IMG/VR virus record: IMGVR_UViG_3300020460_000052
Span: 1 to 24,686 of that record
Strand: one strand, 5' to 3'
DNA from: a virus
Taxonomy: Duplodnaviria > Caudoviricetes
DNA: 24,686 bases
Part shown: positions 422 to 19,878 of the stretch, one piece after another
Layout of the letters: each line of letters begins with the position of its first letter
Numbering within the stretch: the stretch's first letter is position 1
Program-made: the position numbers and the translations under genes
The notes under the pieces: generated by a model
Seen by the model: only the letters and a program-made list of their open reading frames with translations
The model's database searches: none
Told to the model about the DNA's origin: nothing

Positions 422-2362
422 CTATGCCAGTGCCGTCATCATGTTTAGAGAACTGGTGGTAGGCATTTCTCTCACGGTGTTTTCCGTGTTTTGATATGAG
501 TATGAGTTATTGATTACTGGCATAGATGTTCCTCCACCTCCTCCTTGTGATGCAATCGCAGGTATCATAGCCATCATAGAATCTCTCTCTTGTTTCAATC
601 TATTGTTATCAATTATGTCACCGATAATTTGATTGAATTTCTTTTCGGTAAATACTAATTCTTGACCTTGTGCAGTTGGTTGATCTCCAACTAAAACACT
701 TTGCATTGAACCTGGACTATAAGCACCAAAACCTCTTGCTTGTTTGTCTTCAGGTCTGAGTTTTATTTTTTTAAGTCTCTGTTGGTCTCTAAACATTTTT
801 ACTATTTGTCCACCTGTATCAAATAGATTTGGTGTAGTTAAAGGATGCATATTAGGACCTACCTCTTCTATTCTGCTTTGCATTTCTGTAGGTACCCAAT
901 TTCTCCAATTGGTATTTTCATTTGCATTTATCTGTTCATTATTATCAAGTTTTCTTTGCAAATATTCTCTGAGATAGAATGCTAAATCTTGTGAACCTGA
1001 TGCCTCTATTGATGCTTCGGCGGTCTTTTTAACATTTTCTCTTTGGGCTACGGCGGTATCTGATTTACTAAATTCAACTTGTATAGCATCAGATTCTTCT
1101 TTAAGAATTTTTCTCGCTAATGATTGATCTTCTTTCAGAACTATACCCTCTAAATCCGCATTAACATCGCCTTTTTCAATTTCACCTGCTTGAAGCGAGG
1201 CAACAATTTTTCTTCTCAAAGCAAGTTCACGTAGTTTTTCTTCTTTTTCTCTATATTTTGGTCCTTGTCCAGTTTTACCTTCTTCTTCTAATGCCTTTTG
1301 CATTTCGAGTATTTGATTATCAAGTGATTTGATTTTACCTCTTCTTTCAACTTTTGATTGAAAATGCTTATCGAGAAAATATGTCGCAAGAGATCCTAAC
1401 AATAAACCTACAAGACCTCCAAATAACATACCAAGAGGTCCGCCTACCATACCTATAGCGGCACCTGCTTTAAATCCTGCCATACTTCCTAATACTGCAC
1501 CTCCTGCAGAAAGCATCATAAATTTTAAAGGATTTCTTCCTATAGCATCTTGCATATCCGCCGAACCTAAAGCACCAGCAACACCACCTAAAGCACCACC
1601 TATTAATGCACCTAAGACAAGCCCTTTTATACCGAATGATGATCCAAATTTTGCTCCTGCTAACGCACCACCAACTAATCCTAAACCTCCAGTCACCAAA
1701 GGTGATACATCACCAGTAAAGATATCTCCAAGAGATTCATCATCGTCTAATGATTTGGCAACTAATGATAAACCACCAGCAACTAATGCACCAGCAATTG
1801 CCGCCTTAGGTCCGCCAAAAGCAACACCTGCTAATGCCCCTCCAGCAACTGTTGATAAAAAATCATTTTTCTTTAAAAACTCTGTAAAAATAACATCCAT
1901 TTTACCAGTGAATGTTTCTTCTTTTTCTATATTTTTTTTGATCGATTCCCATATACCAGGTGCTAATAATAGACCGCCCATCAAACCTGCAAGACCTTTA
2001 TAGAACCCACCGCTGAATTTTACGCTATTCCAGAGACCTGTAAAAATTCCTTTACCAGCAGAACCTAATGCTCCTGTTAAAAAGAAATCCATAAACTTAC
2101 CGAGAATGCCTTTAGATGGAATTTTTTTGTCAAAAAGACCTTTACCACTTTTGCCAGATACTTTTACTGCATCTTTTTTTGCTTCAAGTCCTTCTTCTAA
2201 TCTTCTACGTGCATCTGCTCTATCTGATTTTAAAAAATATGCAGTGAGATTTCTAATAGATTTTGTTGTTTCTCTTTGGGCTTCAAGTTGACCTTTATTT
2301 TGCTCTTTGAGTGAACTTACAAGGCTCTCAAATTCCATTTTTCCTAATGTTTTTCTGGCCAT
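422..2362 (-). CDS. Probable tape measure protein (gp29-equivalent)
   Basis: 646 aa with an N-terminal coiled coil, a long Gly/Ala-rich hydrophobic region (about aa 85-330) and a helical charged middle. The C-terminal ARGFGAYSPGSMQSVLVGDQPTAQGQELVF resembles the A-x-GG...LVGE-x-GPE motif near tape measure C-termini. It lies directly downstream of the gp26/gp51-like pair. Confidence 0.65.
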   Translation of the reverse strand: MARKTLGKMEFESLVSSLKEQNKGQLEAQRETTKSIRNLTAYFLKSDRADARRRLEEGLEAKKDAVKVSGKSGKGLFDKKIPSKGILGKFMDFFLTGALGSAGKGIFTGLWNSVKFSGGFYKGLAGLMGGLLLAPGIWESIKKNIEKEETFTGKMDVIFTEFLKKNDFLSTVAGGALAGVAFGGPKAAIAGALVAGGLSLVAKSLDDDESLGDIFTGDVSPLVTGGLGLVGGALAGAKFGSSFGIKGLVLGALIGGALGGVAGALGSADMQDAIGRNPLKFMMLSAGGAVLGSMAGFKAGAAIGMVGGPLGMLFGGLVGLLLGSLATYFLDKHFQSKVERRGKIKSLDNQILEMQKALEEEGKTGQGPKYREKEEKLRELALRRKIVASLQAGEIEKGDVNADLEGIVLKEDQSLARKILKEESDAIQVEFSKSDTAVAQRENVKKTAEASIEASGSQDLAFYLREYLQRKLDNNEQINANENTNWRNWVPTEMQSRIEEVGPNMHPLTTPNLFDTGGQIVKMFRDQQRLKKIKLRPEDKQARGFGAYSPGSMQSVLVGDQPTAQGQELVFTEKKFNQIIGDIIDNNRLKQERDSMMAMIPAIASQGGGGGTSMPVINNSYSYQNTENTVREMPTTSSLNMMTALA

Positions 2363-2363
2363 T

Positions 2364-2498
2364 TTATCTCTGGTTTTGTTGATCTCTCAACTTTTCGTTT
2401 TCCTCTTGAATATGTTGTATCAATAATGTTATGTAAATATCTCTTTCATATGGTATCATTTCATTTAGTTCAGTTAAACTATATTTGTGATGTTGCAT
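2364..2498 (-). CDS. 51: gp51-like baseplate hub assembly ORF (44 aa from ATG; the frame is open upstream past the gp26 stop and is probably expressed as a frameshift fusion)
   Basis: Not in the ORF track. Manual translation gives MQHHKYSLTELNEMIPYERDIYITLLIQHIQEENEKLRDQQNQR*, matching the short 'gp51' of cyanophage-type T4-like phages. There is no Shine-Dalgarno upstream of the ATG. Confidence 0.85.
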   Translation of the reverse strand: MQHHKYSLTELNEMIPYERDIYITLLIQHIQEENEKLRDQQNQR

Positions 2499-2537
2499 TA
2501 ACTGAAAGTTAGTAACGTAATGGTTCTGTAAAGATTC

Positions 2538-2549
2538 GTGACACAGGCT
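2538..2549. repeat. 12-bp inverted repeat, left copy (GTGACACAGGCT on +)
   Basis: Exact reverse complement of 3307-3318. On the mRNA it starts 5 nt 3' of the slippery heptamer. Confidence 0.9.
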
Positions 2550-3292
2550 TATGCGAAAAAATCTTCTATTCCACTTAAAGTTACATGTTCAGTACAACCA
2601 CAACCATCACACACATAATCAAATTCATGCCTTAGATAAGGCATAGTTTGAAAAAAATTTCTCATATCTTCAAACTGTTTTGTATTCAAACTATTTAAAA
2701 AATCTAACATCTCTTCTTTTGTATGGTCATCAGTATAAAAAACTGAATCGTCTTGATAAATCATTTCTATATTATCAATCATAATGTCAAAGACTGCATC
2801 AATTGCATTTACTTCTTCATCATTGTCAAATTTATTAAATCTATTGTACATGTCTAAACCTGGGTATTTCATAACAACACCAACATTATCAGATAAATCT
2901 ATCTTTTTAGTATGTCCTTCAAGTGATGTTGGTTTGATCTGTTTTAGATTTATTTTTACATCCTGTATATGCTTACATTCTTCTTTATTTGAATTTAAAT
3001 CGTCAGGATGTTTAAATCTTAAAACAATTTCTTCACCTACCGAAACACTTCTCATGCTCAAAAATAAATATTGAATATCAAAAATCGGTAATTTCTCGAC
3101 ATCTATATCATTCATCACGCAACTTGAAATAATTTGTTTCATTGATCTCATCATTTCTTGTTCATCATTACTTTCTAATGCCATCAACAAAATTTTTTCT
3201 TCTTTCACCAAGAACGGACGATATTGTATCGTTTCTCCCGATGATGTTAGAGTCAATTCATAAGTTGGTGCATTAAGCACCGGTAAAGCCAT
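2549..3292 (-). CDS. 26: gp26-like baseplate hub assembly protein / tail assembly chaperone
   Basis: MALPVLNAPTYELTL...YRPFLVKEEKILLMALES, LPIFDIQYLFLSMRSVSVGE, GVVMKYP, and a C-terminal CDGC...LSGIEDFFA. Shine-Dalgarno AAGGAG at 3303-3298. Confidence 0.88.
   Translation of the reverse strand: MALPVLNAPTYELTLTSSGETIQYRPFLVKEEKILLMALESNDEQEMMRSMKQIISSCVMNDIDVEKLPIFDIQYLFLSMRSVSVGEEIVLRFKHPDDLNSNKEECKHIQDVKINLKQIKPTSLEGHTKKIDLSDNVGVVMKYPGLDMYNRFNKFDNDEEVNAIDAVFDIMIDNIEMIYQDDSVFYTDDHTKEEMLDFLNSLNTKQFEDMRNFFQTMPYLRHEFDYVCDGCGCTEHVTLSGIEDFFA
2555..2561 (-). promoter_or_regulatory. Putative -1 programmed ribosomal frameshift heptamer U_UUU_UUC
   Basis: The minus strand reads GAT TTT TTC GCA TAA, an X_XXY_YYZ pattern in the gp26 frame. 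The -1 frame (TTT TTT CGC ATA AGC...) is open and in frame with the gp51-like ORF. Confidence 0.75.
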
Positions 3293-3306
3293 AATGTCTC
3301 CTTGTT

Positions 3307-3318
3307 AGCCTGTGTCAC
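3307..3318. repeat. 12-bp inverted repeat, right copy (AGCCTGTGTCAC on +)
   Basis: Exact reverse complement of 2538-2549. It lies in the 32-nt intergenic gap, 3 nt upstream of the gp26 Shine-Dalgarno on the mRNA. Confidence 0.9.
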
Positions 3319-3324
3319 AAAATA

Positions 3325-3930
3325 TTATCCTCCTTGATTGCTATTTGGATTTTGCAATCTATCAGCAGGGTTTAAAGTTTGCTGAGAAGGGGTATTAAAT
3401 TGAAGATCTTTTGCCTTCCATTTTCTATAAGAAAATGTAACAGAAAATTTTGCATAGTCATTCATCTGACCAAATCCTACGTTTATAGCACTTACGTTTT
3501 GAGGAAAAACTTCTAAATAATCTATCTCGTACATTACTTCATTATGATTATCCAACAATTGTAGATTAATATTTCCTACCAAACTATCATAATACTCTAC
3601 ATCAAAAGTATTAATATCAATAATATAATCTGCCCATTTATCAAAAAATCTTTTTTCTATTAGATAAGCATCTGAACACATAAAAGTAAACGTTGACTCT
3701 ATAAATTGTACATTATATGGTATTTGTCTTATTGGTCCATATAATCTTGCATCACTTCTAGAAAATGATCTGCCTGGAAGTTCTGCACTTTCTACCGTCA
3801 TAGCCAATGTTTGTGTGTCAATACTTGAAGCGAGTTGAACTGAAGAAGGGCAATATATTTTTGCAATATACCTATTTACTGGTACAGGATTAAAACTTGT
3901 AAGGTCTGTTAATTTTCCTATGTCTATCAT
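3325..3930 (-). CDS. Baseplate-tail tube initiator / tail-tube-family protein (gp54-like)
   Basis: AELPGRSF...YGPIRQIPY, FFDKWADYI, EVFPQNVSAINV and FSVTFSYRKW are gp19/gp54 tube-fold motifs. Its position after gp2 fits gp54. Confidence 0.75.
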   Translation of the reverse strand: MIDIGKLTDLTSFNPVPVNRYIAKIYCPSSVQLASSIDTQTLAMTVESAELPGRSFSRSDARLYGPIRQIPYNVQFIESTFTFMCSDAYLIEKRFFDKWADYIIDINTFDVEYYDSLVGNINLQLLDNHNEVMYEIDYLEVFPQNVSAINVGFGQMNDYAKFSVTFSYRKWKAKDLQFNTPSQQTLNPADRLQNPNSNQGG

Positions 3931-4956: not shown

Positions 4957-4980
4957 ACTAAATATTATGTATATCAGGAG
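4957..4980. promoter_or_regulatory. Divergent control region with putative T4-type late promoters and a ribosome-binding site
   Basis: ACTAAATA at 4957-4964 (+), TATACATA at 4973-4966 (-; one mismatch to TATAAATA) and AGGAG at 4976-4980, all between the two divergent structural operons. Confidence 0.55.
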
Positions 4981-4984
4981 AATA

Positions 4985-5923
4985 ATGTCTAACCCAGTAG
5001 AAAAAATTCAAGCATTAAAAAGTCAAGGTGAAAATGATTTTGCCTTTCCTTCTTCATTAGGTGGCTCAAGCGAAGAAAAACATTTTACTTACATATTGAT
5101 TAAGGATATCGAAAAAGGAGGAAAACAAACATTAGTAGGTACAATTGCATTACCTATGCCTTTGGATATTGTTGATGATTATAAAGTAGAATATGCAGAT
5201 GCTAATTTAGGACCTTTAGGTGCTACTGCGGTAGGTGTTGGCGGAAGTATTGCAAGTGAGCCGAGTTTAGATAATATAAAAAAATCACTTTTGAGTGGTT
5301 TAGGATCATTTAATTCAGGACTGCTTGGACAAGTTGTTGCAAAAAAAGCAATATCTATGATACCTGGAATTAGTACAGGTGATGGACGAGCCGCCGCTGG
5401 ACAGATTGTAACATCTGCTACAAATAAAGCAGTGAACCCATACATTACAGGCGTATTTAAAAGTATAGGTTTTAAAACTTTTAATTTTACTTTTAGATGT
5501 CATCCAAGAAATTCAACAGACACACAAAATTTAACACAAATTATTAAATTTTTTAGAAATTCTATGTTACCTGATGATGTCGTAGTTGATGTAGATTTTG
5601 GTGATCCAGAGTTTACTTACAAACAACAAACAGGATTGCAAACATTACCAAGAAGATTCTATTTAGATTTTTTTACTTCAACAGGTGACTTTGGAGTAGA
5701 AGATGCACAACTCTATGGTTCTCGCTATTTGCCTAGTATCAATGATGCCGCCATGACCAGTTTTTCAGTTGATTATGAGACGGAAGGGGCACCTGCATTT
5801 CATAAAAATTCATCGCCAGTTAGTACAATCTTAAACATGACATTTACAGAATCTAAAATTTATACCAGAGATAATGTAAGAAAAGAAAATGATAGGTATC
5901 AAATTTTACAGGAGAAATTTTAA
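4985..5923 (+). CDS. 48: Baseplate tail tube cap (gp48-like), copy 1
   Basis: IALPMP...DDYKVEY, AVNPY...FKSIGFKTFNFTF..HPRN, IIKFFRNSMLP and LNMTFTE. The start is placed at ATG 4985 because AGGAG precedes it; the ORF track gives 4967. Confidence 0.8.
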   Translation: MSNPVEKIQALKSQGENDFAFPSSLGGSSEEKHFTYILIKDIEKGGKQTLVGTIALPMPLDIVDDYKVEYADANLGPLGATAVGVGGSIASEPSLDNIKKSLLSGLGSFNSGLLGQVVAKKAISMIPGISTGDGRAAAGQIVTSATNKAVNPYITGVFKSIGFKTFNFTFRCHPRNSTDTQNLTQIIKFFRNSMLPDDVVVDVDFGDPEFTYKQQTGLQTLPRRFYLDFFTSTGDFGVEDAQLYGSRYLPSINDAAMTSFSVDYETEGAPAFHKNSSPVSTILNMTFTESKIYTRDNVRKENDRYQILQEKF

Positions 5924-7038
5924 TGTCACCGCAGGAAAAATTAGAAAATATAAAACGAAGTCTAGGTGTTACTACAATTGAAAAATTTCCTGAAAATGTT
6001 GCTAGTGATGAAGTTGGTCATTTTATGATGATAACCGAGTATCAATTTAAAAACACAAATACAAAAAACAGAGATGCTTTAACTCGTTTTTCAGAACAAA
6101 TAACAACTACTGCACCATATGAATCACGTAATGCATTTGCTTTGTACTTACCAAAAGGTTCTTTAAAAACACAATATTCTGCAAGTCATGAAAAAGTAGA
6201 CTTTGGATTTTTTGGTGCCTTGTTAAATTCAGAGTCATCAGATATTTTAAATCGATTACAAGCACAACTTCCAGGTATTATGCAATCTGATAGGAATGAC
6301 ATAAGCAAATCATTTAATTTTTATAAAAATATTGCGACAACTGTAGGTGATGAATTATCACCAAATGTGAATAGATATATTAATCAAGATATGAGTACAA
6401 AAATGGCATTTAACATTGGTCAAGCGGTTGGTGGATTATTATTATCAAAAGATAAGACTGCATCAGTGGCATCATTATCTATGAGAAAAACTGGAAATCC
6501 ATATTCTACGTTAGTTTTTGCAGGTGTTAAAGAACGAAGACAACATGCATTCTCATTTGATTTTTACCCAAGAAGTTCTTTGGAATCTGAAAACATTTTA
6601 AAAATCATAACAAAATTGAAAGCAGGTATGTTACCTGATTATCATAAACCTGATGTTGAAAATAAAAAAAAGGTTGAAAAATATCAAGTTGAAAAACTTG
6701 AAACTAAACTGCGGTATGACGTTCTGAGCGGTCTAAGCACAAATGTAACCTCCATAAAAACAAAACCTGCATCAGATGCTCAAACAAATTTATTGAAGTC
6801 GGCATTTTTCAATTATCCAAATGTTTACACAATAAAATTTTACAAAACAAACGGCACGAAAAATGAATTTCTTCATCAGATAGGTCAGTCATCAATATTA
6901 AATTTAAAATTGTCATATGGTGAAGGAGGTCAGCAAGTGTTTTTTAAAAATGGTGCACCTCAACATGTCAAAATGGATATCACTTTCAAAGAAAATTTTG
7001 CATTATCAAGAAATCTTGCTAAAAATTTAGAGGGTTAA
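5923..7038 (+). CDS. 48: Baseplate tail tube cap (gp48-like), copy 2
   Basis: FALYLP...TQYSASH, GNPY...FAGVKERRQHAFSFDFYPRS, IITKLKAGMLP, FFNYPNVYTIKF and MDITFKE. Immediately upstream of gp53. Confidence 0.78.
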   Translation: MSPQEKLENIKRSLGVTTIEKFPENVASDEVGHFMMITEYQFKNTNTKNRDALTRFSEQITTTAPYESRNAFALYLPKGSLKTQYSASHEKVDFGFFGALLNSESSDILNRLQAQLPGIMQSDRNDISKSFNFYKNIATTVGDELSPNVNRYINQDMSTKMAFNIGQAVGGLLLSKDKTASVASLSMRKTGNPYSTLVFAGVKERRQHAFSFDFYPRSSLESENILKIITKLKAGMLPDYHKPDVENKKKVEKYQVEKLETKLRYDVLSGLSTNVTSIKTKPASDAQTNLLKSAFFNYPNVYTIKFYKTNGTKNEFLHQIGQSSILNLKLSYGEGGQQVFFKNGAPQHVKMDITFKENFALSRNLAKNLEG

Positions 7039-12295: not shown

Positions 12296-12450
12296 CAGAA
12301 GATGTAATATTCGAAGAACAAAAAATCAGAAATCATAAATTGGAAAATGTTTTACAAAAAACATTAGATTTTAATATTCAATATTTGGATTTCTTAGAGA
12401 ATAAGTTAAAAGAAATGAGACAAAAAAGAGATGAGTTAAAAAATGGCTGA
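12292..12450 (+). CDS. Small coiled-coil hypothetical protein (52 aa)
   Basis: Not in the ORF track. MTEDVIFEEQKIRNHKLENVLQKTLDFNIQYLDFLENKLKEMRQKRDELKNG*. It overlaps the gp5 stop (ATGA), overlaps the next gene's start by 8 nt and fills the gap exactly. Confidence 0.75.
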   Translation: MTEDVIFEEQKIRNHKLENVLQKTLDFNIQYLDFLENKLKEMRQKRDELKNG

Positions 12451-15400
12451 AGCACCTGTAGAATTTGATCAGAAAAAATTATTTGATCAGAGTGATCCTT
12501 TGCTAAATGCAGTATTAACAAATATTGCAACTTTTGCAAGTGATGTTTCTGGTGGACTTGGTACGTTAGTTGAATTTTTAAATCTGACTAAAATTTATTT
12601 GAAAGCAATTGCTGATCCAATAGCATTAATTTTAATACCTGCGATAGATCAACTCATCGAAGCAATTGAAGATCTAAAAAATATTGGGTTTGGAACCTTG
12701 TCTGTATGGCCATGGGAAACAGGAAAAGTTGAAAGTGGAATTGATTCGACAAAAGCACTTGAAGCAATACAATCACTTATTGTTGCGTTGAATCAAATTA
12801 ATCCTGACAATTTAAAATGGAATCCTAGAACAAATCAATTTCAATCTGTAACCGTTTTAGGTGACAGAGATGATTTGCAACAACAAGGAGCAGGATTTTT
12901 AGACTCACAACCATTTGGTTTTTCTGCTTTTGAACAGGTATCAATCTCAACAGACGAAGAGGGTCGAACTGTTGAAGCAAAAAATTTAGACAAAACATTC
13001 ATTAACAATACTTTAAATACCATTTACAATTATTTAAATCCAAAAGAATGGGAAGAGGGTGATGATGCAACAAAACGTTTTATCAATACATTAAACGAAT
13101 CATTTCAAATAAGAACACTTACACCTTCGCAATTTGTTTCGGAAGTTAGTAGTTCTTTTGATGATACAAATGATCCAGCAAGACCTGTTGGTAGCGGTGA
13201 TTATATAGCGTTTGTAGGGTTTTTTGCATTACCTACGCATCACGCTTTGAGAGATATGATTAATTCACTTCTTAAATTCTTTGCAAATTTTTTGAGAAAC
13301 ATACCTGATCTTCAAGACGATAAGGTTACAGATATTGAATTAGGACATCCATTAGTAATTCCAGGATTAGAGACTGATTTACTTTTAGAAACATACGATG
13401 CTATGGAGGCGGCAGATAGTGAATTAGTAGATGTTGCTAATGAACTTTCTGATGCACAAGAGGCCGAGGCCATAGCCGCAGTAACATCACTATACGGAGT
13501 TAATTCTGATAATATAAAAAAATATAACTCGATCTTAAAAACATCAAGAGAACGATATAAAAATGAATTTAAAAGAAGATGGGATTTAGCAAGTCAAATA
13601 AATGAATTACAAAAACAATTATTAACTTCACCAGATACAATATCAATAGAACAAGAAATTGCTCGTTTATCAGACTTAGCAACAAAGGCGGCCGAAAATA
13701 TTAGAGTTGAAATAATTACACAACAAGAATACGGAAGACAGTTGGCAAATGCTACTGCCGAGGCAAATAATTTACAATCCGATTTTAACGACAAAGAAGA
13801 AAAGACAAAGCAAATTCAAGCAAAAAGAAATGCGTTAGAAAAAAAGAGAAACAATATTAGTCTTGATACAACTGTTTTGCAGGAAAAATTCTATACCTTA
13901 GATAATACATCGATGAGAGATCTGTCCGCAATAACAGAAGAAAAAATATTTACACCTAAAAATAATACCCATAATGGTGTGACAATACCGATGTTTGAAG
14001 AGGGTGCATTAATTCAACAAGGACACGTATTTAATGATTTTACCGCAGAAGTTGTCAGGCATGTAGAGATACGAGTTAAAGACGGACAAGTAATTAGTAA
14101 TAAATTAAAGGTCAGGAAAGTTAGAGGAAATATTAAACATAATACAAGTTCACCTATGCAACAAATAAATGTTCCTCCAATTATTGCATTAGATGGAAAA
14201 CAATTGGATTCGTTTGGAATTTTGAAAACAGGTCAAGGTATTCAAGGAGCAAAAGATGCTTTAAATTTTCCTATGTTTGCGCCGACTAATCCTGACGTGC
14301 CTCAATTACAACCTGCTTTAAAATTTAAAGCAACTATGGAAACAGGTAGTAATATTTTACGAACCGTATTACCAGTTAATGATGAATTGATAAAATACAA
14401 CTCTACAGGTTCTGCACAAGATGATCCTTTGACCGTCACCGATATCTATACCGATCAAAATTTGATTGGTAAATTATCCTTTCAAGTTACGATGGAAAAT
14501 TTTGTTGAAAATCTTACGATTGGATCACCAATCACGCATAATTTTTTAGTTACGTCTTCTGTATCCGAAGTAGATATTCCTGTAAATCCTTTTGACAGAT
14601 TAGGGTGGTCATTATTTCCTGGCATGGGACTAACGCCATGCATCAAAAAAGTTTTGATAGATGGAAAAGAACTGAAAAAACAAGACATAAAAACACAATT
14701 ATTTAAAACTAGGAAAAAAACTTCATCTTCAAAAGACGTTGAATATGAAAGTATGAATGAAATAACAATAGAAATTGGAAGAGTAACGAAGTCTGGTGAA
14801 ATAGAGTCATATGACACAAAGAATGTAATAATACCAAATAAAATTGTTAATAATGCATTTCTTGATGTGCCTTTGACTTTGCATAAAATATCTGGCACTA
14901 GATCGAGCATACCAAATTGGAAGTTTACACGAATACAAGATATCTTTCCGGTGTATGGAAGAGTTTTAGATCGAATAGTAGATAAATTAGAATTTGCAAA
15001 AGATTTGGCATCTGGTTCATTAGATGACATAGACAAATGGATACAATATTTTGAGGATCTTGTACGAGATTTAAAAACTTTAAACAAAGAAATTCAAACT
15101 TTATTACAATTTTTAGCATCAGGGTTGGATAAACAGGGTTTATATTTTGCAAGTTTTTCTGGTAATGATGGTGTCAATGGGTTTAAAAGAAAACTTTCTA
15201 GTGCAAAAATAAAAAACGTCAATCTTGAACCGATCAAAGAATTTTCTCTTGAACCTGTCGTAGTAAACAGAATTGGGGGTGATGGTGAAACGGTTCAAGC
15301 AGAAGTATTAAAACTTGTACAAAAAGAAGATCCTGAAAGCGTGGGCGAACAATTGATCGATTGGTCTGATCTCGACTCTTTAAAATATAGTGGAGGATTT

Positions 15401-16090
15401 GTTTTTTATGCACAAGGAAACGATACTAAACTTTTAGAGAAATTTTTATTAACAAGTGGTTTAAAGAAAGCGGAAGACAAAGAAAATCCTAAACCAGAAG
15501 TAACAGCCACAGACGGTGACGATATAGATTTTAATGTAGTGAATTCTTTACTTGAAAAAGTACAACCAGAGGTTGATAAGATTGAAATAGAGCAAACAGG
15601 ATTCATTAACGATACTGTTTTTGTACAGGCAGATGGTGCCGAACTTGTTAGAAAAAACACACAAATAAAAATTACATTTAAAAATGATAGTATATCTTTG
15701 ACTGAGGAAGAAAAACAAACAATAAGAAATGCTAAAGGTAATGATTTTATTTTCGATGTCGATATAAATTATGGATCAATAATTGCATCAAGTGGAAATG
15801 TTGATGAAGGAAACGTTATATTATCAAATGATAATTTTGAAACTGCAACACCATTAAATTATTCGGTACAACCAATTAGAGAAACTATAACTGTAAACGA
15901 ACAAGAGATAGACGTAGTAAAATCAGTTATAGTTAAGCCTCAAAATAAACTGGAAGCAAAAACAAACTTTAAATTAAAAGTAAAAAAATCCATATTAAAT
16001 AATAGTAATCAACAACTCAAAGAAGAGTTTGTGATGACTTTAGGATTTACAACAACATCAACTACAATAATTGATATCGGATTACTATAA
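12443..16090 (+). CDS. Large hypothetical virion-associated protein with helical modules, a coiled coil and a C-terminal Ig-like (Big_5/SbsA-like) domain
   Basis: 1215-aa ORF, translationally coupled within the baseplate operon. Coiled coil at about aa 315-480. C-terminal IKITFKN...VIVKPQNKLEAKTNFKLKVKKSI...GFTT resembles Big_5. Confidence 0.6.
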   Translation: MAEAPVEFDQKKLFDQSDPLLNAVLTNIATFASDVSGGLGTLVEFLNLTKIYLKAIADPIALILIPAIDQLIEAIEDLKNIGFGTLSVWPWETGKVESGIDSTKALEAIQSLIVALNQINPDNLKWNPRTNQFQSVTVLGDRDDLQQQGAGFLDSQPFGFSAFEQVSISTDEEGRTVEAKNLDKTFINNTLNTIYNYLNPKEWEEGDDATKRFINTLNESFQIRTLTPSQFVSEVSSSFDDTNDPARPVGSGDYIAFVGFFALPTHHALRDMINSLLKFFANFLRNIPDLQDDKVTDIELGHPLVIPGLETDLLLETYDAMEAADSELVDVANELSDAQEAEAIAAVTSLYGVNSDNIKKYNSILKTSRERYKNEFKRRWDLASQINELQKQLLTSPDTISIEQEIARLSDLATKAAENIRVEIITQQEYGRQLANATAEANNLQSDFNDKEEKTKQIQAKRNALEKKRNNISLDTTVLQEKFYTLDNTSMRDLSAITEEKIFTPKNNTHNGVTIPMFEEGALIQQGHVFNDFTAEVVRHVEIRVKDGQVISNKLKVRKVRGNIKHNTSSPMQQINVPPIIALDGKQLDSFGILKTGQGIQGAKDALNFPMFAPTNPDVPQLQPALKFKATMETGSNILRTVLPVNDELIKYNSTGSAQDDPLTVTDIYTDQNLIGKLSFQVTMENFVENLTIGSPITHNFLVTSSVSEVDIPVNPFDRLGWSLFPGMGLTPCIKKVLIDGKELKKQDIKTQLFKTRKKTSSSKDVEYESMNEITIEIGRVTKSGEIESYDTKNVIIPNKIVNNAFLDVPLTLHKISGTRSSIPNWKFTRIQDIFPVYGRVLDRIVDKLEFAKDLASGSLDDIDKWIQYFEDLVRDLKTLNKEIQTLLQFLASGLDKQGLYFASFSGNDGVNGFKRKLSSAKIKNVNLEPIKEFSLEPVVVNRIGGDGETVQAEVLKLVQKEDPESVGEQLIDWSDLDSLKYSGGFVFYAQGNDTKLLEKFLLTSGLKKAEDKENPKPEVTATDGDDIDFNVVNSLLEKVQPEVDKIEIEQTGFINDTVFVQADGAELVRKNTQIKITFKNDSISLTEEEKQTIRNAKGNDFIFDVDINYGSIIASSGNVDEGNVILSNDNFETATPLNYSVQPIRETITVNEQEIDVVKSVIVKPQNKLEAKTNFKLKVKKSILNNSNQQLKEEFVMTLGFTTTSTTIIDIGLL

Positions 16091-19000
16091 TGGCATTCAA
16101 TAGAGAACGAATTGATTCAACTGCAAGTGATTTCGATGTTAATGAAATCAATCAAAATAATTTCTCAAACAATACAATTTTTGTACCTTTAGATAAATCA
16201 TTTACACTTACGTTTGATGATCCAGTTGATTCCGAAACAATATCTCTTCATACAAATAATACAGACATAGATGTAAGCGAAAGAGGTAAAAGAGGTTCTG
16301 TGCAATTATCCTGTGTTGGTGATCCAGGACTCGGTTCTGATGCCGATTCTTTGAATTTAAGATTGAAAAAAGGCACGAGTAGTCCTCCATTTGTCATATC
16401 ATCTTCTCCTGGTACTTTGATAAAAGATCAAGATGCTACTATTGAAGTAGAAATGTTGTCACAACCAGTTATATCAAACGCAAACGCTACATTTTCTTTT
16501 GAACCAGTAGTTAATTTGGCCAGTAATTCAACGTATGTTTTCAATGTGACAAAGGATGTTCAAGATAAAGATGGTAGTGAAACCTCGTTTACCGTTGGTA
16601 CAGGTTTTGTTACGGATAATACTAGAAGTTTAATTTTAAGTTCTAGACCTTTTAATGGTCACATTATCAATTTACCATCGGATAATGAATTAAAGTTTGA
16701 GAAAGATGAAGTTGTTAAAAAATCTGAAAGAAATTTACCAGTGGCAACTGTTATTAAACACGATGAAGTTTCAGTATTAACTTACGATCTAAACCCCGTT
16801 TGTTATTTTATAAATGTGGCGTTTACTGCCGCAAATCCATGTGTGATAACAACCTCAACTGATCACGGACTATTTGCTGATAATAAAATTACGATATATG
16901 ATATAGTAAGCGGTAGTGGATTATCAAAAAGAACATACTCAATATCAAGTGTAACAACAAATACAATAACATTAGACGGTGTTAATACATTATATGGTAC
17001 TGCTGGTAGAATAAATTTTTATGTCGATTTTTCTGCTGATGATGAGATTGTTTCTACGGGTAGAACAAAAATTTTGCCTCCTCGAGAATCTGTTTGGGCA
17101 GGCACAGATATTCCTATAACTCTACCAGCGCCTTTTCCAATACCTACTATACCAGGAATACAGACTCCATCATTTCCAATCGAAAGTTTTCAGGCAACAG
17201 AGGTATCAGATAATATACGAATAAAGGCGACCTCAAACCCAAGAAAAAATTTTGTTGATATAGAATTAAACAAGGAACTGCATCAATTTTTACCAACGAC
17301 CGCTACTAAACATTTTGCGAAGAGTATAAGATTTGATGACACAAATAATCAACTAAGTTATGTTCCAGTGACTGGTTCAGAATCAAATATTATTAAATCT
17401 ACTGATAATTTCGCAAATAATATTATTTTGAAGCAAGGCACAATCACTTTGTTTGTGAGTGCAAATACAAATCCTACTCATAACACACACCCATTCAATA
17501 CATCTGCACCTACAGTAACAGATTTTGTGCCAGATGCGAATGATGCAATAACAAGAAATTTAGAGGTTATAGAAATTACAAGAAGCGGTACGACCGCAAC
17601 AGTTTTTACAAATTCAATACATGCTTTAAACATAGGCGACTCAATAAAAATAGAGGGTTGTAACGAAACCGATTATAATATTTCTGCAACCGTGCAAACT
17701 ATTGTTGATCCATTTAGATTTACTTATGAAGTTGCAAATGAGCCTAGATCGCCTGCAACTCCTTTTTCGGGAAAAATTGAATTAAAGACAGGTGGTACTC
17801 CTGCGTTACAAGCAACCGCTTTTCAGGTTCGTTTTAGTCAATCTATGAATACGAGTACAATAAGTGTAGCAAATGCTTCACATTTTATCTATGCAAATGG
17901 CACTACTACAACTACTGGATATGATAAAACCGCCGCCACTATTCAATTGTCACATGATAATTTTGCTACATCAACCGGTTTAGTGAATTGCAAATCTATA
18001 TCAGCAAATACTGGAAATTCATTGTTTACAATAGTTCCAGAAACACTATTACGTGGTAAATCTTATAAAATAAAAGTCACTACGAATGCCAGAGATCTCG
18101 GAGATACAAATACGGATGTAGATTACATCACAACTAATACTTTTTCAACTGGTACAAAAAGTTTTAATCCATCGACTGGTAAAGAACTTGTTTTTGTTGA
18201 TAACATACCACCAAAAATAAGAAAAATAACATTAGGTTCAAATGTACTAGAAAGTTCAAATGTTGAAGAAATTTCTGCTCCGCCTACTGGTATAGCGGTA
18301 AATTTTACTGACAATTTTGTTGTTCAATTTAATGAATCTATGAACGTTGAAACGGTTAATGTCAATTCTACTAATACAGATCCTTTTGGTACAATACAAG
18401 TTTCGGCTGATGATTTTACGACAGTCATTCAAATGGATGCACAACCAGCCGTTTCAACAACAAGCGAAAGAAACGATACATTCACATTTCATCCAGAAGG
18501 TAATGTTTCGTCAAATGCAACATATGTTGTAAAAGTTACAAAAGGTGTTGCAGATGAATCACCAAATCAAAATTTTTTAGAAACCGATAATGTATCTTCT
18601 ACGAAAACTCTAACTATTGGAAGTGCAACTGGATCATATACTGCAGGAGAAACAGTTATCGGTACAAGAACTGCAAGTACGAGGGCAAATAGCGGAGCCG
18701 TTACTCTTAATGAAACTTTATTAGGAACGACATCTTTGGCAAAAGGTATATTAAGGGCGCACACTCCTGGTAGTGGCACTCTTACATCAATAGAATATAC
18801 CGAGATAGCAAGCGAAGATGGAACAATAAAAGAGTTTTTACCAGGTGAAGTATTAACAGGACTCACATCTGGTAAAACTATAACAACATCAAATGCTACT
18901 ATAACGCAAGCCGCCTCTGGTGTAGTTTTAAATTTTACTGATCCAAGTCTAAGAATTAGACATTCAAATACTTCAATCGCTTTTGATACAACTGACGGTA

Positions 19001-19878
19001 TTTTGACAGGTGTTACATCAGGTGCTAAAGGCACGATGACGGCAATAACTAATACTGGTTTTTCAACTCAATCGACTGCCTTGAGTGTAACATCTTTTGT
19101 GAGAGAAGAGGATAATGATATAGTTGAATTAAATACGACCAGAACAGGTATTGATCATGACTCAAATGTTATAATAAAATTTAGTCAAACTATGAATGCT
19201 GATACTATTATTGTAAATTCAACTGATAGTCAAGTTAATTCATCTGATACTGTTATATTTTCAAAAGATAGTAACTTTACAAATTGTGTGCCTCTTTTGG
19301 CAAGTCCAACAATATCTGAAAATGGAACAAAGTTTGAGTTTAAACCTGCAATACTTGCTAACACAAGTTTAAGATTATCACAACATGATTATTACTATGT
19401 TAAAGTTACAAGAGGAGCAAAAACGAAAGGCTCAAAAAACACCACCTCTGAATATACGTCTTCAAGTGCAAGAATAGGAACAGGATTATCTCCTGATTTT
19501 AAAGGTATAAACGCATCTGTATTTACCACAGACGGTACGGAAGTAATTTTGGGCACCGAAAATAATAATAGCAAAACCAGTTCTGCATCAGTTAATAGTC
19601 CAATAATTTTTCATTTTAGCGAGGCAGTAGATGTTTCACAATTTGCATCTGGTGCTGGTGCTGAAATATTGGTTGATGATTCCTCAGGTTTTGGTTCACC
19701 AGTAACAGTTACATTAGCAAAATCTGGTAGATTTGGAAATCAAATTATAGCAACACCATCATCTGCATTGAGTGCAGGAACACGTTATTACGTCAAAGCA
19801 AATTCTGGAGGATCAAATGATGGCGGACATGCCATATCTACTGCACAAGAATTTGGTTCTTTCACAACTGCATCATAA
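16090..19878 (+). CDS. Large multi-Ig-like-domain (Big_5/SbsA-like) structural or adhesion protein
   Basis: 1262 aa, Thr/Ser/Asn-rich. Five repeats start FTLTFDDPVD, FQVRFSQSMN, FVVQFNESMN, VIIKFSQTMN and IIFHFSEAVD, and most close with P..L....Y.V.VT...F.T. Confidence 0.7.
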   Translation: MAFNRERIDSTASDFDVNEINQNNFSNNTIFVPLDKSFTLTFDDPVDSETISLHTNNTDIDVSERGKRGSVQLSCVGDPGLGSDADSLNLRLKKGTSSPPFVISSSPGTLIKDQDATIEVEMLSQPVISNANATFSFEPVVNLASNSTYVFNVTKDVQDKDGSETSFTVGTGFVTDNTRSLILSSRPFNGHIINLPSDNELKFEKDEVVKKSERNLPVATVIKHDEVSVLTYDLNPVCYFINVAFTAANPCVITTSTDHGLFADNKITIYDIVSGSGLSKRTYSISSVTTNTITLDGVNTLYGTAGRINFYVDFSADDEIVSTGRTKILPPRESVWAGTDIPITLPAPFPIPTIPGIQTPSFPIESFQATEVSDNIRIKATSNPRKNFVDIELNKELHQFLPTTATKHFAKSIRFDDTNNQLSYVPVTGSESNIIKSTDNFANNIILKQGTITLFVSANTNPTHNTHPFNTSAPTVTDFVPDANDAITRNLEVIEITRSGTTATVFTNSIHALNIGDSIKIEGCNETDYNISATVQTIVDPFRFTYEVANEPRSPATPFSGKIELKTGGTPALQATAFQVRFSQSMNTSTISVANASHFIYANGTTTTTGYDKTAATIQLSHDNFATSTGLVNCKSISANTGNSLFTIVPETLLRGKSYKIKVTTNARDLGDTNTDVDYITTNTFSTGTKSFNPSTGKELVFVDNIPPKIRKITLGSNVLESSNVEEISAPPTGIAVNFTDNFVVQFNESMNVETVNVNSTNTDPFGTIQVSADDFTTVIQMDAQPAVSTTSERNDTFTFHPEGNVSSNATYVVKVTKGVADESPNQNFLETDNVSSTKTLTIGSATGSYTAGETVIGTRTASTRANSGAVTLNETLLGTTSLAKGILRAHTPGSGTLTSIEYTEIASEDGTIKEFLPGEVLTGLTSGKTITTSNATITQAASGVVLNFTDPSLRIRHSNTSIAFDTTDGILTGVTSGAKGTMTAITNTGFSTQSTALSVTSFVREEDNDIVELNTTRTGIDHDSNVIIKFSQTMNADTIIVNSTDSQVNSSDTVIFSKDSNFTNCVPLLASPTISENGTKFEFKPAILANTSLRLSQHDYYYVKVTRGAKTKGSKNTTSEYTSSSARIGTGLSPDFKGINASVFTTDGTEVILGTENNNSKTSSASVNSPIIFHFSEAVDVSQFASGAGAEILVDDSSGFGSPVTVTLAKSGRFGNQIIATPSSALSAGTRYYVKANSGGSNDGGHAISTAQEFGSFTTAS

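Follow-up and report, generated by a model that had tools for sequence, protein, structure and literature searches.

In one clade of T4-like phages, the leader of gp26, which codes for a tail assembly chaperone, and the strand that follows the slippery heptamer at the end of the same gene probably pair on the mRNA as a −1 frameshift stimulator, of which the whole gp26 frame would be the loop. The gp26/gp51 frameshift of T4-like phages is already known (PMC12846349 cites Vladimirov, Gautam and Davidson 2022 for it); what is new here is the helix, not the frameshift itself.

The gp26 Locus and its Frameshift Setting

The window, i.e., the whole stretch of DNA analyzed here, is a linear virus record of 24.7 kb (33% GC) that encodes a T4-like tail module according to PHROG matches. 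Sequencing runs containing it are mostly marine metagenomes, and the phage and its host are uncultured. The nearest cultured relatives of its gp26 belong to cyanophages (44% identity), while a search with the junction found no cultured clade member and gave only weak matches to KVP40-like phages. On the minus strand, the gene order is a head-closure gene, a DNA end protector, a tail-tube-like gene, gp26, a gp51-like −1 frame and a gene of 646 aa. The tail-tube-like (gp54-like) gene upstream (3325..3930, minus strand, 201 aa) matches the tail tube family PHROG 45 (E 4.5e-26). The gp26-like gene (2549..3292, minus strand, 247 aa, with its ATG at 3292) matches PHROG 150 (E 4.9e-67) and PF12322, and likely encodes the short tail assembly chaperone (TAC-N). 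Its structure model (pLDDT 93.6) resembles, over residues 1–95 only, 3fgx (Z 8.1) and YqbN 3klu (Z 7.0; next row 5.2), both of which we take to be TACs, and its N-terminal part aligns with 2ob9, the tail assembly chaperone of HK97 (Z 7.5, rmsd 3.8, 84 aligned), Z values near 7–8 being borderline according to the note of the tool; Foldseek with the same model gave no match at E 0.001.

The slippery heptamer T TTT TTC (2555..2561, minus strand), the predicted −1 shift site, is followed by a spacer of 6 nt (2549..2554, minus strand) composed of one sense codon and the zero-frame stop TAA (2551–2549). The gp51-like −1 frame (2364..2555, minus strand, 63 codons) matches PHROG 634 (E 4e-26), and the predicted products are a fusion of 309 aa and a short form of 247 aa. 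The 646-aa gene (422..2362, minus strand) would encode the tape-measure protein, as suggested by its position directly downstream, its own match to PHROG 1047 being weak (E 3e-5); across six contigs, the gene downstream of gp26/gp51 codes for 617–1015 aa and has weak family matches only. From the tight gene spacing we infer that both arms of the helix described below lie on one mRNA, and terminator-like matches inside gp26 are at chance level (1 vs. 0.6 expected).

The heptamer reads TTTTTTC or TTTTTTT in 208 of 211 non-identical gp26 loci (154 and 54, respectively), in-frame Phe–Phe being absent from the slip site of the other three (L020, L076, L121), where it is replaced by Phe–Leu. The −1 frame is open over 57–69 codons in all 201 loci with a stop in range, and in 181/208 loci 3 nt separate the heptamer from the zero-frame stop. 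In 12/208 loci (including L013, L026, L027, L037, L042, L053, L056, L058, L060 and L078), 9 or 24 nt, rather than 0–3 nt, lie between the heptamer and that stop.

The Two Arms and the Specificity of Their Predicted Pairing

The 5′ arm of the predicted helix (3307..3321, minus strand) lies within the 32-nt intergenic gap, where the stop of the gp54-like gene ends 7 nt ahead of the helix core. It contains a perfect 12-mer, GTGACACAGGCT, at 3318–3307 of the minus strand (−26 to −15 from the ATG), and a core, TGACACAGGC, at 3317–3308, which is invariant in 30/30 clade loci. The Shine–Dalgarno-like AAGGAG of gp26 (3298..3303, minus strand) is located 3 nt 3′ of this arm and outside the helix. The 3′ arm (2535..2549, minus strand; core 2548–2539) carries the matching 12-mer, AGCCTGTGTCAC, at 2549–2538, i.e., 5 nt past the heptamer (2561–2555), while the core itself begins 6 nt past; this arm shares the final A of the gp26 stop, and its −1-frame codons, which are fixed, spell S-L-C-H. 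The arms, 758 nt apart, form 12 Watson–Crick pairs, or 15 pairs with one G–U and two U–A, the 12-mer having 7/12 GC. The end of the helix that faces the ribosome consists of G–C, C–G and C–G, without any relaxation to G–U, and the loop corresponds in the window to little else than the Shine–Dalgarno sequence, the ATG and the ORF to its stop. All positions, spacings, pair counts and the GC content reported in an earlier, sequence-only reading of this DNA are indeed present in the sequence. The core motif is found in the window only at the two arms, and the same holds in 5/5 other contigs (38–84 kb). A scan of the window against 4227 Rfam families gave no match at gathering score. A promoter reading of the arm was considered and rejected: promoter-like matches are at chance level (19 vs. 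15.2), and the arm match would start inside the gene.

Perfect inverted pairs of at least 12 bp are not rare in the window (63, of which 4 within 1 kb). The sequence-only reading had proposed to set the duplex against controls, and in such a comparison the leader duplex is unmatched: none of 6127 other 32-nt windows reaches its −26.5 kcal/mol with the same tail, the best one attaining −22.0 kcal/mol. Moreover, gp26 ranks first for pairing between leader and stop region among the 18–53 ORFs of each contig, in 6/6 contigs. The helix is present in both the MFE and the centroid folds of the 921-nt region, its core pairs have probabilities of 0.98–1.0 in 5/5 loci folded, and, when the loop is forced fully open, the state expected behind translating ribosomes, it still amounts to −12.5 to −20.9 kcal/mol.

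Conservation of the Predicted Helix within One Clade

A protein search yielded 80 loci (78 complete), of which 11 have the pairing. Scanning with the 3′ arm alone retrieved 37 loci, four of them without a gp26 start; the other 33, which include near-identical strains, all carry the complement in the leader (10–16 bp). The pooled set contains 330 loci with a gp26 match, of which 307 are complete, 211 non-identical and 208 endowed with the heptamer. In these 208 loci, duplex energies are bimodal: 30 lie at or below −19.5 kcal/mol, a cut set after the gap in the energies was seen, and all have the core, while the remaining 178 lie at or above −18.4 kcal/mol and none has it. The sequence-only reading had proposed to look for complementarity in related T4-like phages, and it does occur, within a single clade (30/208 gp26 loci). 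The members of this clade share 43–100% gp26 protein identity, reduce to 18 representatives and all retain the 10-bp core unchanged. Among 61 further complete loci, the duplex was found only in L596, a contig of a known member. A search with the 5′ arm and a start codon was too loose, as gp26 was present in no more than 2 of its 120 loci (known members of the set), and it did not properly sample leader arms lacking a 3′ arm.

The spacer between heptamer and core measures 6 nt in 30/30 loci, a constancy partly forced by the two reading frames, whereas the distance from the arm to the ATG varies from 6 to 17 nt. Only 3 of the 47 residue-invariant codons of gp26 are also codon-invariant, and yet neither the non-coding 10-nt arm nor the codons of the 3′ arm ever change. 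Conserved pairing does not extend beyond about 15 bp. In 14 loci (30–42% identity), S-L-C-H is encoded by other codons, and no leader pairing exists. An AGGA or GGAG 4-mer is found 3′ of the arm in 24/30 clade loci, a possible overlap between the Shine–Dalgarno sequence and the arm being restricted to six loci, in which the arm lies 6 nt from the ATG. As for the stop of the upstream gene, its distance to the core ranges from −3 to 92 nt across the clade. Competition between the pairing and ribosomes terminating on that gene, which was also part of the sequence-only reading, is thus not a conserved feature.

The gp26 tree places the 27 distinct proteins of duplex loci together with those of L118 and L119 (29 rows, support 98/96), the latter two being left either within or beside the duplex group. 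These two loci and 12 complete loci of the same junction type have neither arm and no strong downstream partner; their slip site features a run of 9 U, and this lineage may rely on intrinsic or transcriptional slippage. Loci listed under this type are L118, L119, L584–L595, L597 and L598. Since the lineage does without it, the helix is not required for the gp26/gp51 pair.

Covariation is of little help within the clade. The compensatory changes predicted by the sequence-only reading are weak and not significant: the covariation score is 0.102 vs. 0.085 for shuffles (31/500 shuffles, a level that the notes of the tool do not count as evidence), and there are 8 both-side cells vs. 6.0 (90/500 shuffles). 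The ten core pairs never vary and are hence uninformative. Outside the core, the next pair is G–C in 17, A–U in 6, G–U in 2 and broken in 2 of 27 cases, while the second pair outward is U–G in 12, C–G in 7, U–A in 6 and broken in 2. Read on the tree, these changes amount to about two independent G–C/A–U swaps, two G–U intermediates and two breaks; in addition, the leader base that faces a G switches several times between U and C, the pair being kept in 19/19 cases. Clade members with an altered core were found neither with a degenerate S-L-C-H pattern in viral contigs (77 loci), nor in metagenome contigs (114 loci from 14 of 64 parts scanned, 20 of them encoding gp26), nor in five further protein scans. 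Recognition in a sequence-specific manner would also account for such an invariant core.

Predicted Downstream Partners outside the Clade

For comparison, we used 119 representatives of the 167 usable loci among the 178 non-clade ones; as these representatives are related, the p-values obtained with them are overstated. The strand starting at +4 finds a partner downstream with an energy of −13 kcal/mol or lower in 50% of the 119, vs. 44% at offset 0, 23% at +8 and 0–10% at the remaining 22 offsets. The downstream partner from the same locus reaches −12.6 kcal/mol, compared to −9.4 kcal/mol for those of other loci and −9.9 kcal/mol for synonymous shuffles, and it outperforms the former in 95/119 and the latter in 90/119 representatives. 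Within a 100-nt window, the strongest contiguous helix begins at +4 to +9 in 56/119 representatives (7 expected), with a mode at +7, which is precisely where the clade core starts; in the other 63, the best helix begins elsewhere. Depending on the lineage, the partner ends near +33, +60–65, +83–91, +112–120, +153 or +185. Predicted helices of 9–13 bp starting at +6 to +8 can be seen, for example, in L029, L160, L012, L080 and L137. Among cultured T4-like phages, local stems are predicted for Syn1 and KVP40. No published description of such downstream-partner helices was found in the literature searched.

Within the clade, none of the 18 representatives has a downstream partner, and the best partner of the post-slip strand is the leader in 24/24 loci. 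Outside the clade, leader pairing is indistinguishable from controls (−8.7 vs. −8.5 kcal/mol, p 0.70, n = 118), with five leaders beating all 30 controls when about four are expected; the pairings of L159 (−18.4 kcal/mol) and L057 (−17.3 kcal/mol) may be due to chance. On these comparisons, the predicted position of the first strand is conserved, while the source of the second strand moves between lineages. Because the clade lacks the downstream partner that is common elsewhere at the same position, its leader most likely stands in for the 3′ strand that a −1 frameshift stimulator usually has. The central idea of the sequence-only reading, i.e., that a stimulatory helix receives its partner strand from the leader, hence receives strong comparative support from the 6-nt spacer (30/30) and from the replacement of the downstream partner.

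Two further differences separate the clade from the other loci. A Shine–Dalgarno-like 4-mer occurs 5–20 nt upstream of the heptamer (2566–2581 in the window) in 159/178 non-clade loci and in 7/30 clade loci; this 4-mer might act as a second stimulator, dropped by the clade, or might just code for Glu–Gly. TAAATA, which at gp26 leaders we take to be a late-promoter-like motif, occurs no more than 60 nt from the start of gp26 in 53/178 non-clade loci and 1/30 clade loci, a scarcity that fits a clade needing its leader to be transcribed from further upstream.

How the Helix Would Act

According to the mechanism that we propose, the arms would pair into a helix of 10–16 bp and, with TTT-TTC in the P and A sites, the ribosome would have the GC-rich end of this helix at its mRNA entry, the first pairs standing 12–13 nt from the first P-site base. 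It is at this entry that the ribosomal helicase is located. Most ribosomes would melt the first pairs and stop at TAA, which would yield the 247-aa chaperone and probably open the helix, while a minority would slip by −1 and produce the 309-aa fusion. A partner lying in translated sequence would often be melted by the ribosomes reading gp26, so that the −1 frame, seldom read, and an untranslated gap would be the places left for it, the clade using the gap. Since this melting argument alone would explain the location of the arm, no coupling to initiation is required. Ribosome loading and frameshift rate may be linked, because the arm ends 6–17 nt before the start codon.

Regarding geometry, most stimulators start 6–9 nt 3′ of the slip site (PMC5009743), and the helix of the clade, which starts at 6 nt, falls within the 5–9 nt range of stimulators in 30/30 loci. 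According to PMC3458567, an annealed oligonucleotide duplex alone stimulates −1 shifting in vitro, though its optimum in eukaryotic lysate is 0–3 nt, vs. 6 nt here. The joint absence of both arms from the related L118/L119 lineage also counts in favor of a stimulator, against which stand the break of the next pair out in 2/27 cases and the very existence of a related lineage devoid of the helix.

A more ambitious version, which we put forward tentatively and would rather doubt, makes of the gp26 cistron a self-regulating closed loop, where the helix would both stall ribosomes at the slip site and crowd the start codon, so that each finishing ribosome would open the way for the next one. If true, the ribosome load and the ratio of short to fused product would stay constant whatever the mRNA level or the state of the host, and a bacterial recoding signal would be wired to the initiation region of its own gene.

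Alternative Explanations

In place of a stimulator, the helix might mainly hinder 30S loading on gp26 and alter frameshifting only indirectly, the ribosome at the stop opening the helix and freeing the start, which would limit the output of chaperone or space the ribosomes. The arm does end 6–17 nt ahead of the ATG in 30/30 loci, and in 6/30 no Shine–Dalgarno-like 4-mer is left outside of it. Long-distance pairing between 5′ and 3′ regions blocks the translation of type I toxin mRNAs (PMC6733600), and ribosome load shifts the −1 frameshifting of IS3 about 2-fold (PMC6815119). However, the Shine–Dalgarno sequence lies outside the helix in 24/30 loci, it is the distance to the slip site that is fixed and the distance to the ATG that is free, and the downstream partners of other phages, which are nowhere near a ribosome-binding site, would be left unexplained. 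Overall, we regard such an initiation effect as unlikely. The competition with initiation envisaged in the sequence-only reading is plausible as far as the position of the arm is concerned, but the Shine–Dalgarno sequence is left outside the helix in most loci.

The helix could also act at the slip site in another capacity, by pausing ribosomes at the stop codon or by reducing frameshifting, which we deem improbable. The proximity of the zero-frame stop, 3 nt past the heptamer in 181/208 loci, would suit this role, as would the retention of the gene pair by the helix-free lineage and the upstream pairings that, according to PMC10602861, destabilize the stimulator of umbravirus-like RNAs. Yet, the start of the helix equals the usual spacing of stimulators, and the clade offers the leader no local structure to break up.

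Very improbable, in our view, is a processing stem cut by a double-strand nuclease, e.g., RNase III, so as to excise a gp26-only message and favor the short product. Such a role would be reminiscent of rRNA processing stems, the loop holding in the window almost exactly the Shine–Dalgarno sequence, the ATG and the ORF to its stop. RNase III usually needs about two helical turns, for which 10–16 bp are short, and the pairing is not conserved past about 15 bp; nor would processing give any reason for the downstream partners of other phages.

We give even less credence to an element acting at the DNA level, either inverted recombinase sites flipping gp26 or two sites bound by a protein that recognizes DNA or duplexes. 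The core neither varies nor covaries, and its TGACA resembles a sigma-70 −35 box, but the window and 5/5 contigs each hold just two copies of the motif, which is not expected of a regulon site, and all 30 loci have a gp51-like −1 frame, of full length in the 29 where the DNA extends far enough. An inverted gp26 arrangement was not seen in the 30 loci, nor were strand-change joints in eight runs, where only contigs, which drop rare forms, were considered. Furthermore, the outer pairs are repeatedly G–U, a pair that is workable only in RNA. Finally, chance complementarity inherited by descent, to which the 63 perfect inverted pairs of at least 12 bp in the window might lend some appeal, is scarcely credible because the complementarity is conserved in relatives, both arms being invariant even though the proteins are only 43% identical and synonymous sites nearly saturated.

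Comparison with Known Systems

Like other tail assembly chaperone loci (lambda G/GT and T4-like gp26/gp51), the window has a slip site rich in U, followed by a −1 frame that stays open; the next gene would be that of the tape measure, and the fold of the chaperone may be TAC-like. No stimulator helix, local or long-range, was found for T4-like chaperone sites in the literature covered, the 2022 T4-chaperone paper lying outside that coverage. As in the stem-loops of HIV gag-pol, E. coli dnaX and the IS3 family, the predicted helix begins 6 nt past an X XXY YYZ heptamer, but here it is the 3′ strand of the helix that follows the slip site, the other strand being located about 760 nt upstream, ahead of the start codon. 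Barley yellow dwarf virus, umbraviruses, coronaviruses and IS3411 (distal stem-loop) also have pairings that span hundreds to thousands of nt and include the frameshift element. Their partners are found downstream, where they either modify a local stem or pseudoknot or compete with it; in the clade, the sole predicted helix has an upstream partner, and the host is bacterial. Long-range frameshift partners are described as downstream in PMC7618472 and PMC11326378.

The closest upstream precedent in the literature covered, described in PMC10602861, is provided by PK3 and PK4 of the umbravirus-like RNA CY1, i.e., upstream pairings supported by compensatory mutations. These are pairings of 5–7 bp in a plant RNA, proposed to unzip a local stimulator (PMC10602861), unlike the 10–16 bp predicted here, which would come from an untranslated ribosome-binding region and act without a local stimulator. 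Frameshifting induced by antisense oligonucleotides likewise involves a duplex 3′ of the slip site with its second strand outside a hairpin, but, according to PMC3458567, that system is synthetic, works in trans in eukaryotic lysate and has its optimum at 0–3 nt. Whether oligonucleotide-induced frameshifting has natural counterparts has been called unclear (PMC5009743), and the leader helix, if true, would be a natural tethered version of it. Finally, the type I toxin mRNAs aapA and hok, as well as the control of the MS2 maturation gene, share a pairing that encloses an ORF near its ribosome-binding site; according to PMC6733600, the Shine–Dalgarno sequence itself is sequestered there and its release needs 3′ processing, whereas in the clade it is outside the helix in 24/30 loci and the 3′ arm is tied to the slip site.

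A frameshift stimulator supplied by a leader was not found in the literature covered, most subscription papers being outside this coverage. Because nearly every known −1 stimulator is encoded downstream of its slip site, and because frameshift predictors fold windows of only 50–100 nt (PMC10274946), a stimulator closed by a leader would be missed by local scans; if true, it would also be lost in standard reporters. Such a helix makes testable the relation between ribosome loading and frameshift rate, which is an under-studied question (PMC5009743). More broadly, the slip sites of T4-like chaperone genes would often come with a helix of fixed start, the partner of which moves between lineages, even into the leader.

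Other Features of the Window

Three other features of the window deserve mention. A perfect 15-bp inverted repeat (417–431 and 516–530, with an 85-nt loop) overlaps the stop of the 646-aa gene and faces a convergent single-strand-binding gene; it is kept in the near-identical end of G005 and was not seen in four more distant contigs. Two tandem genes (4967–5923 and 5923–7038, plus strand) each have a match in PHROG 230, a family of baseplate tail tube caps. Two adjacent ORFs (12443–16090 and 16090–19878, plus strand) of 1215 and 1262 aa, which are flanked by the hub-lysozyme gene on one side and the wedge genes on the other, have no PHROG match at E 0.001.
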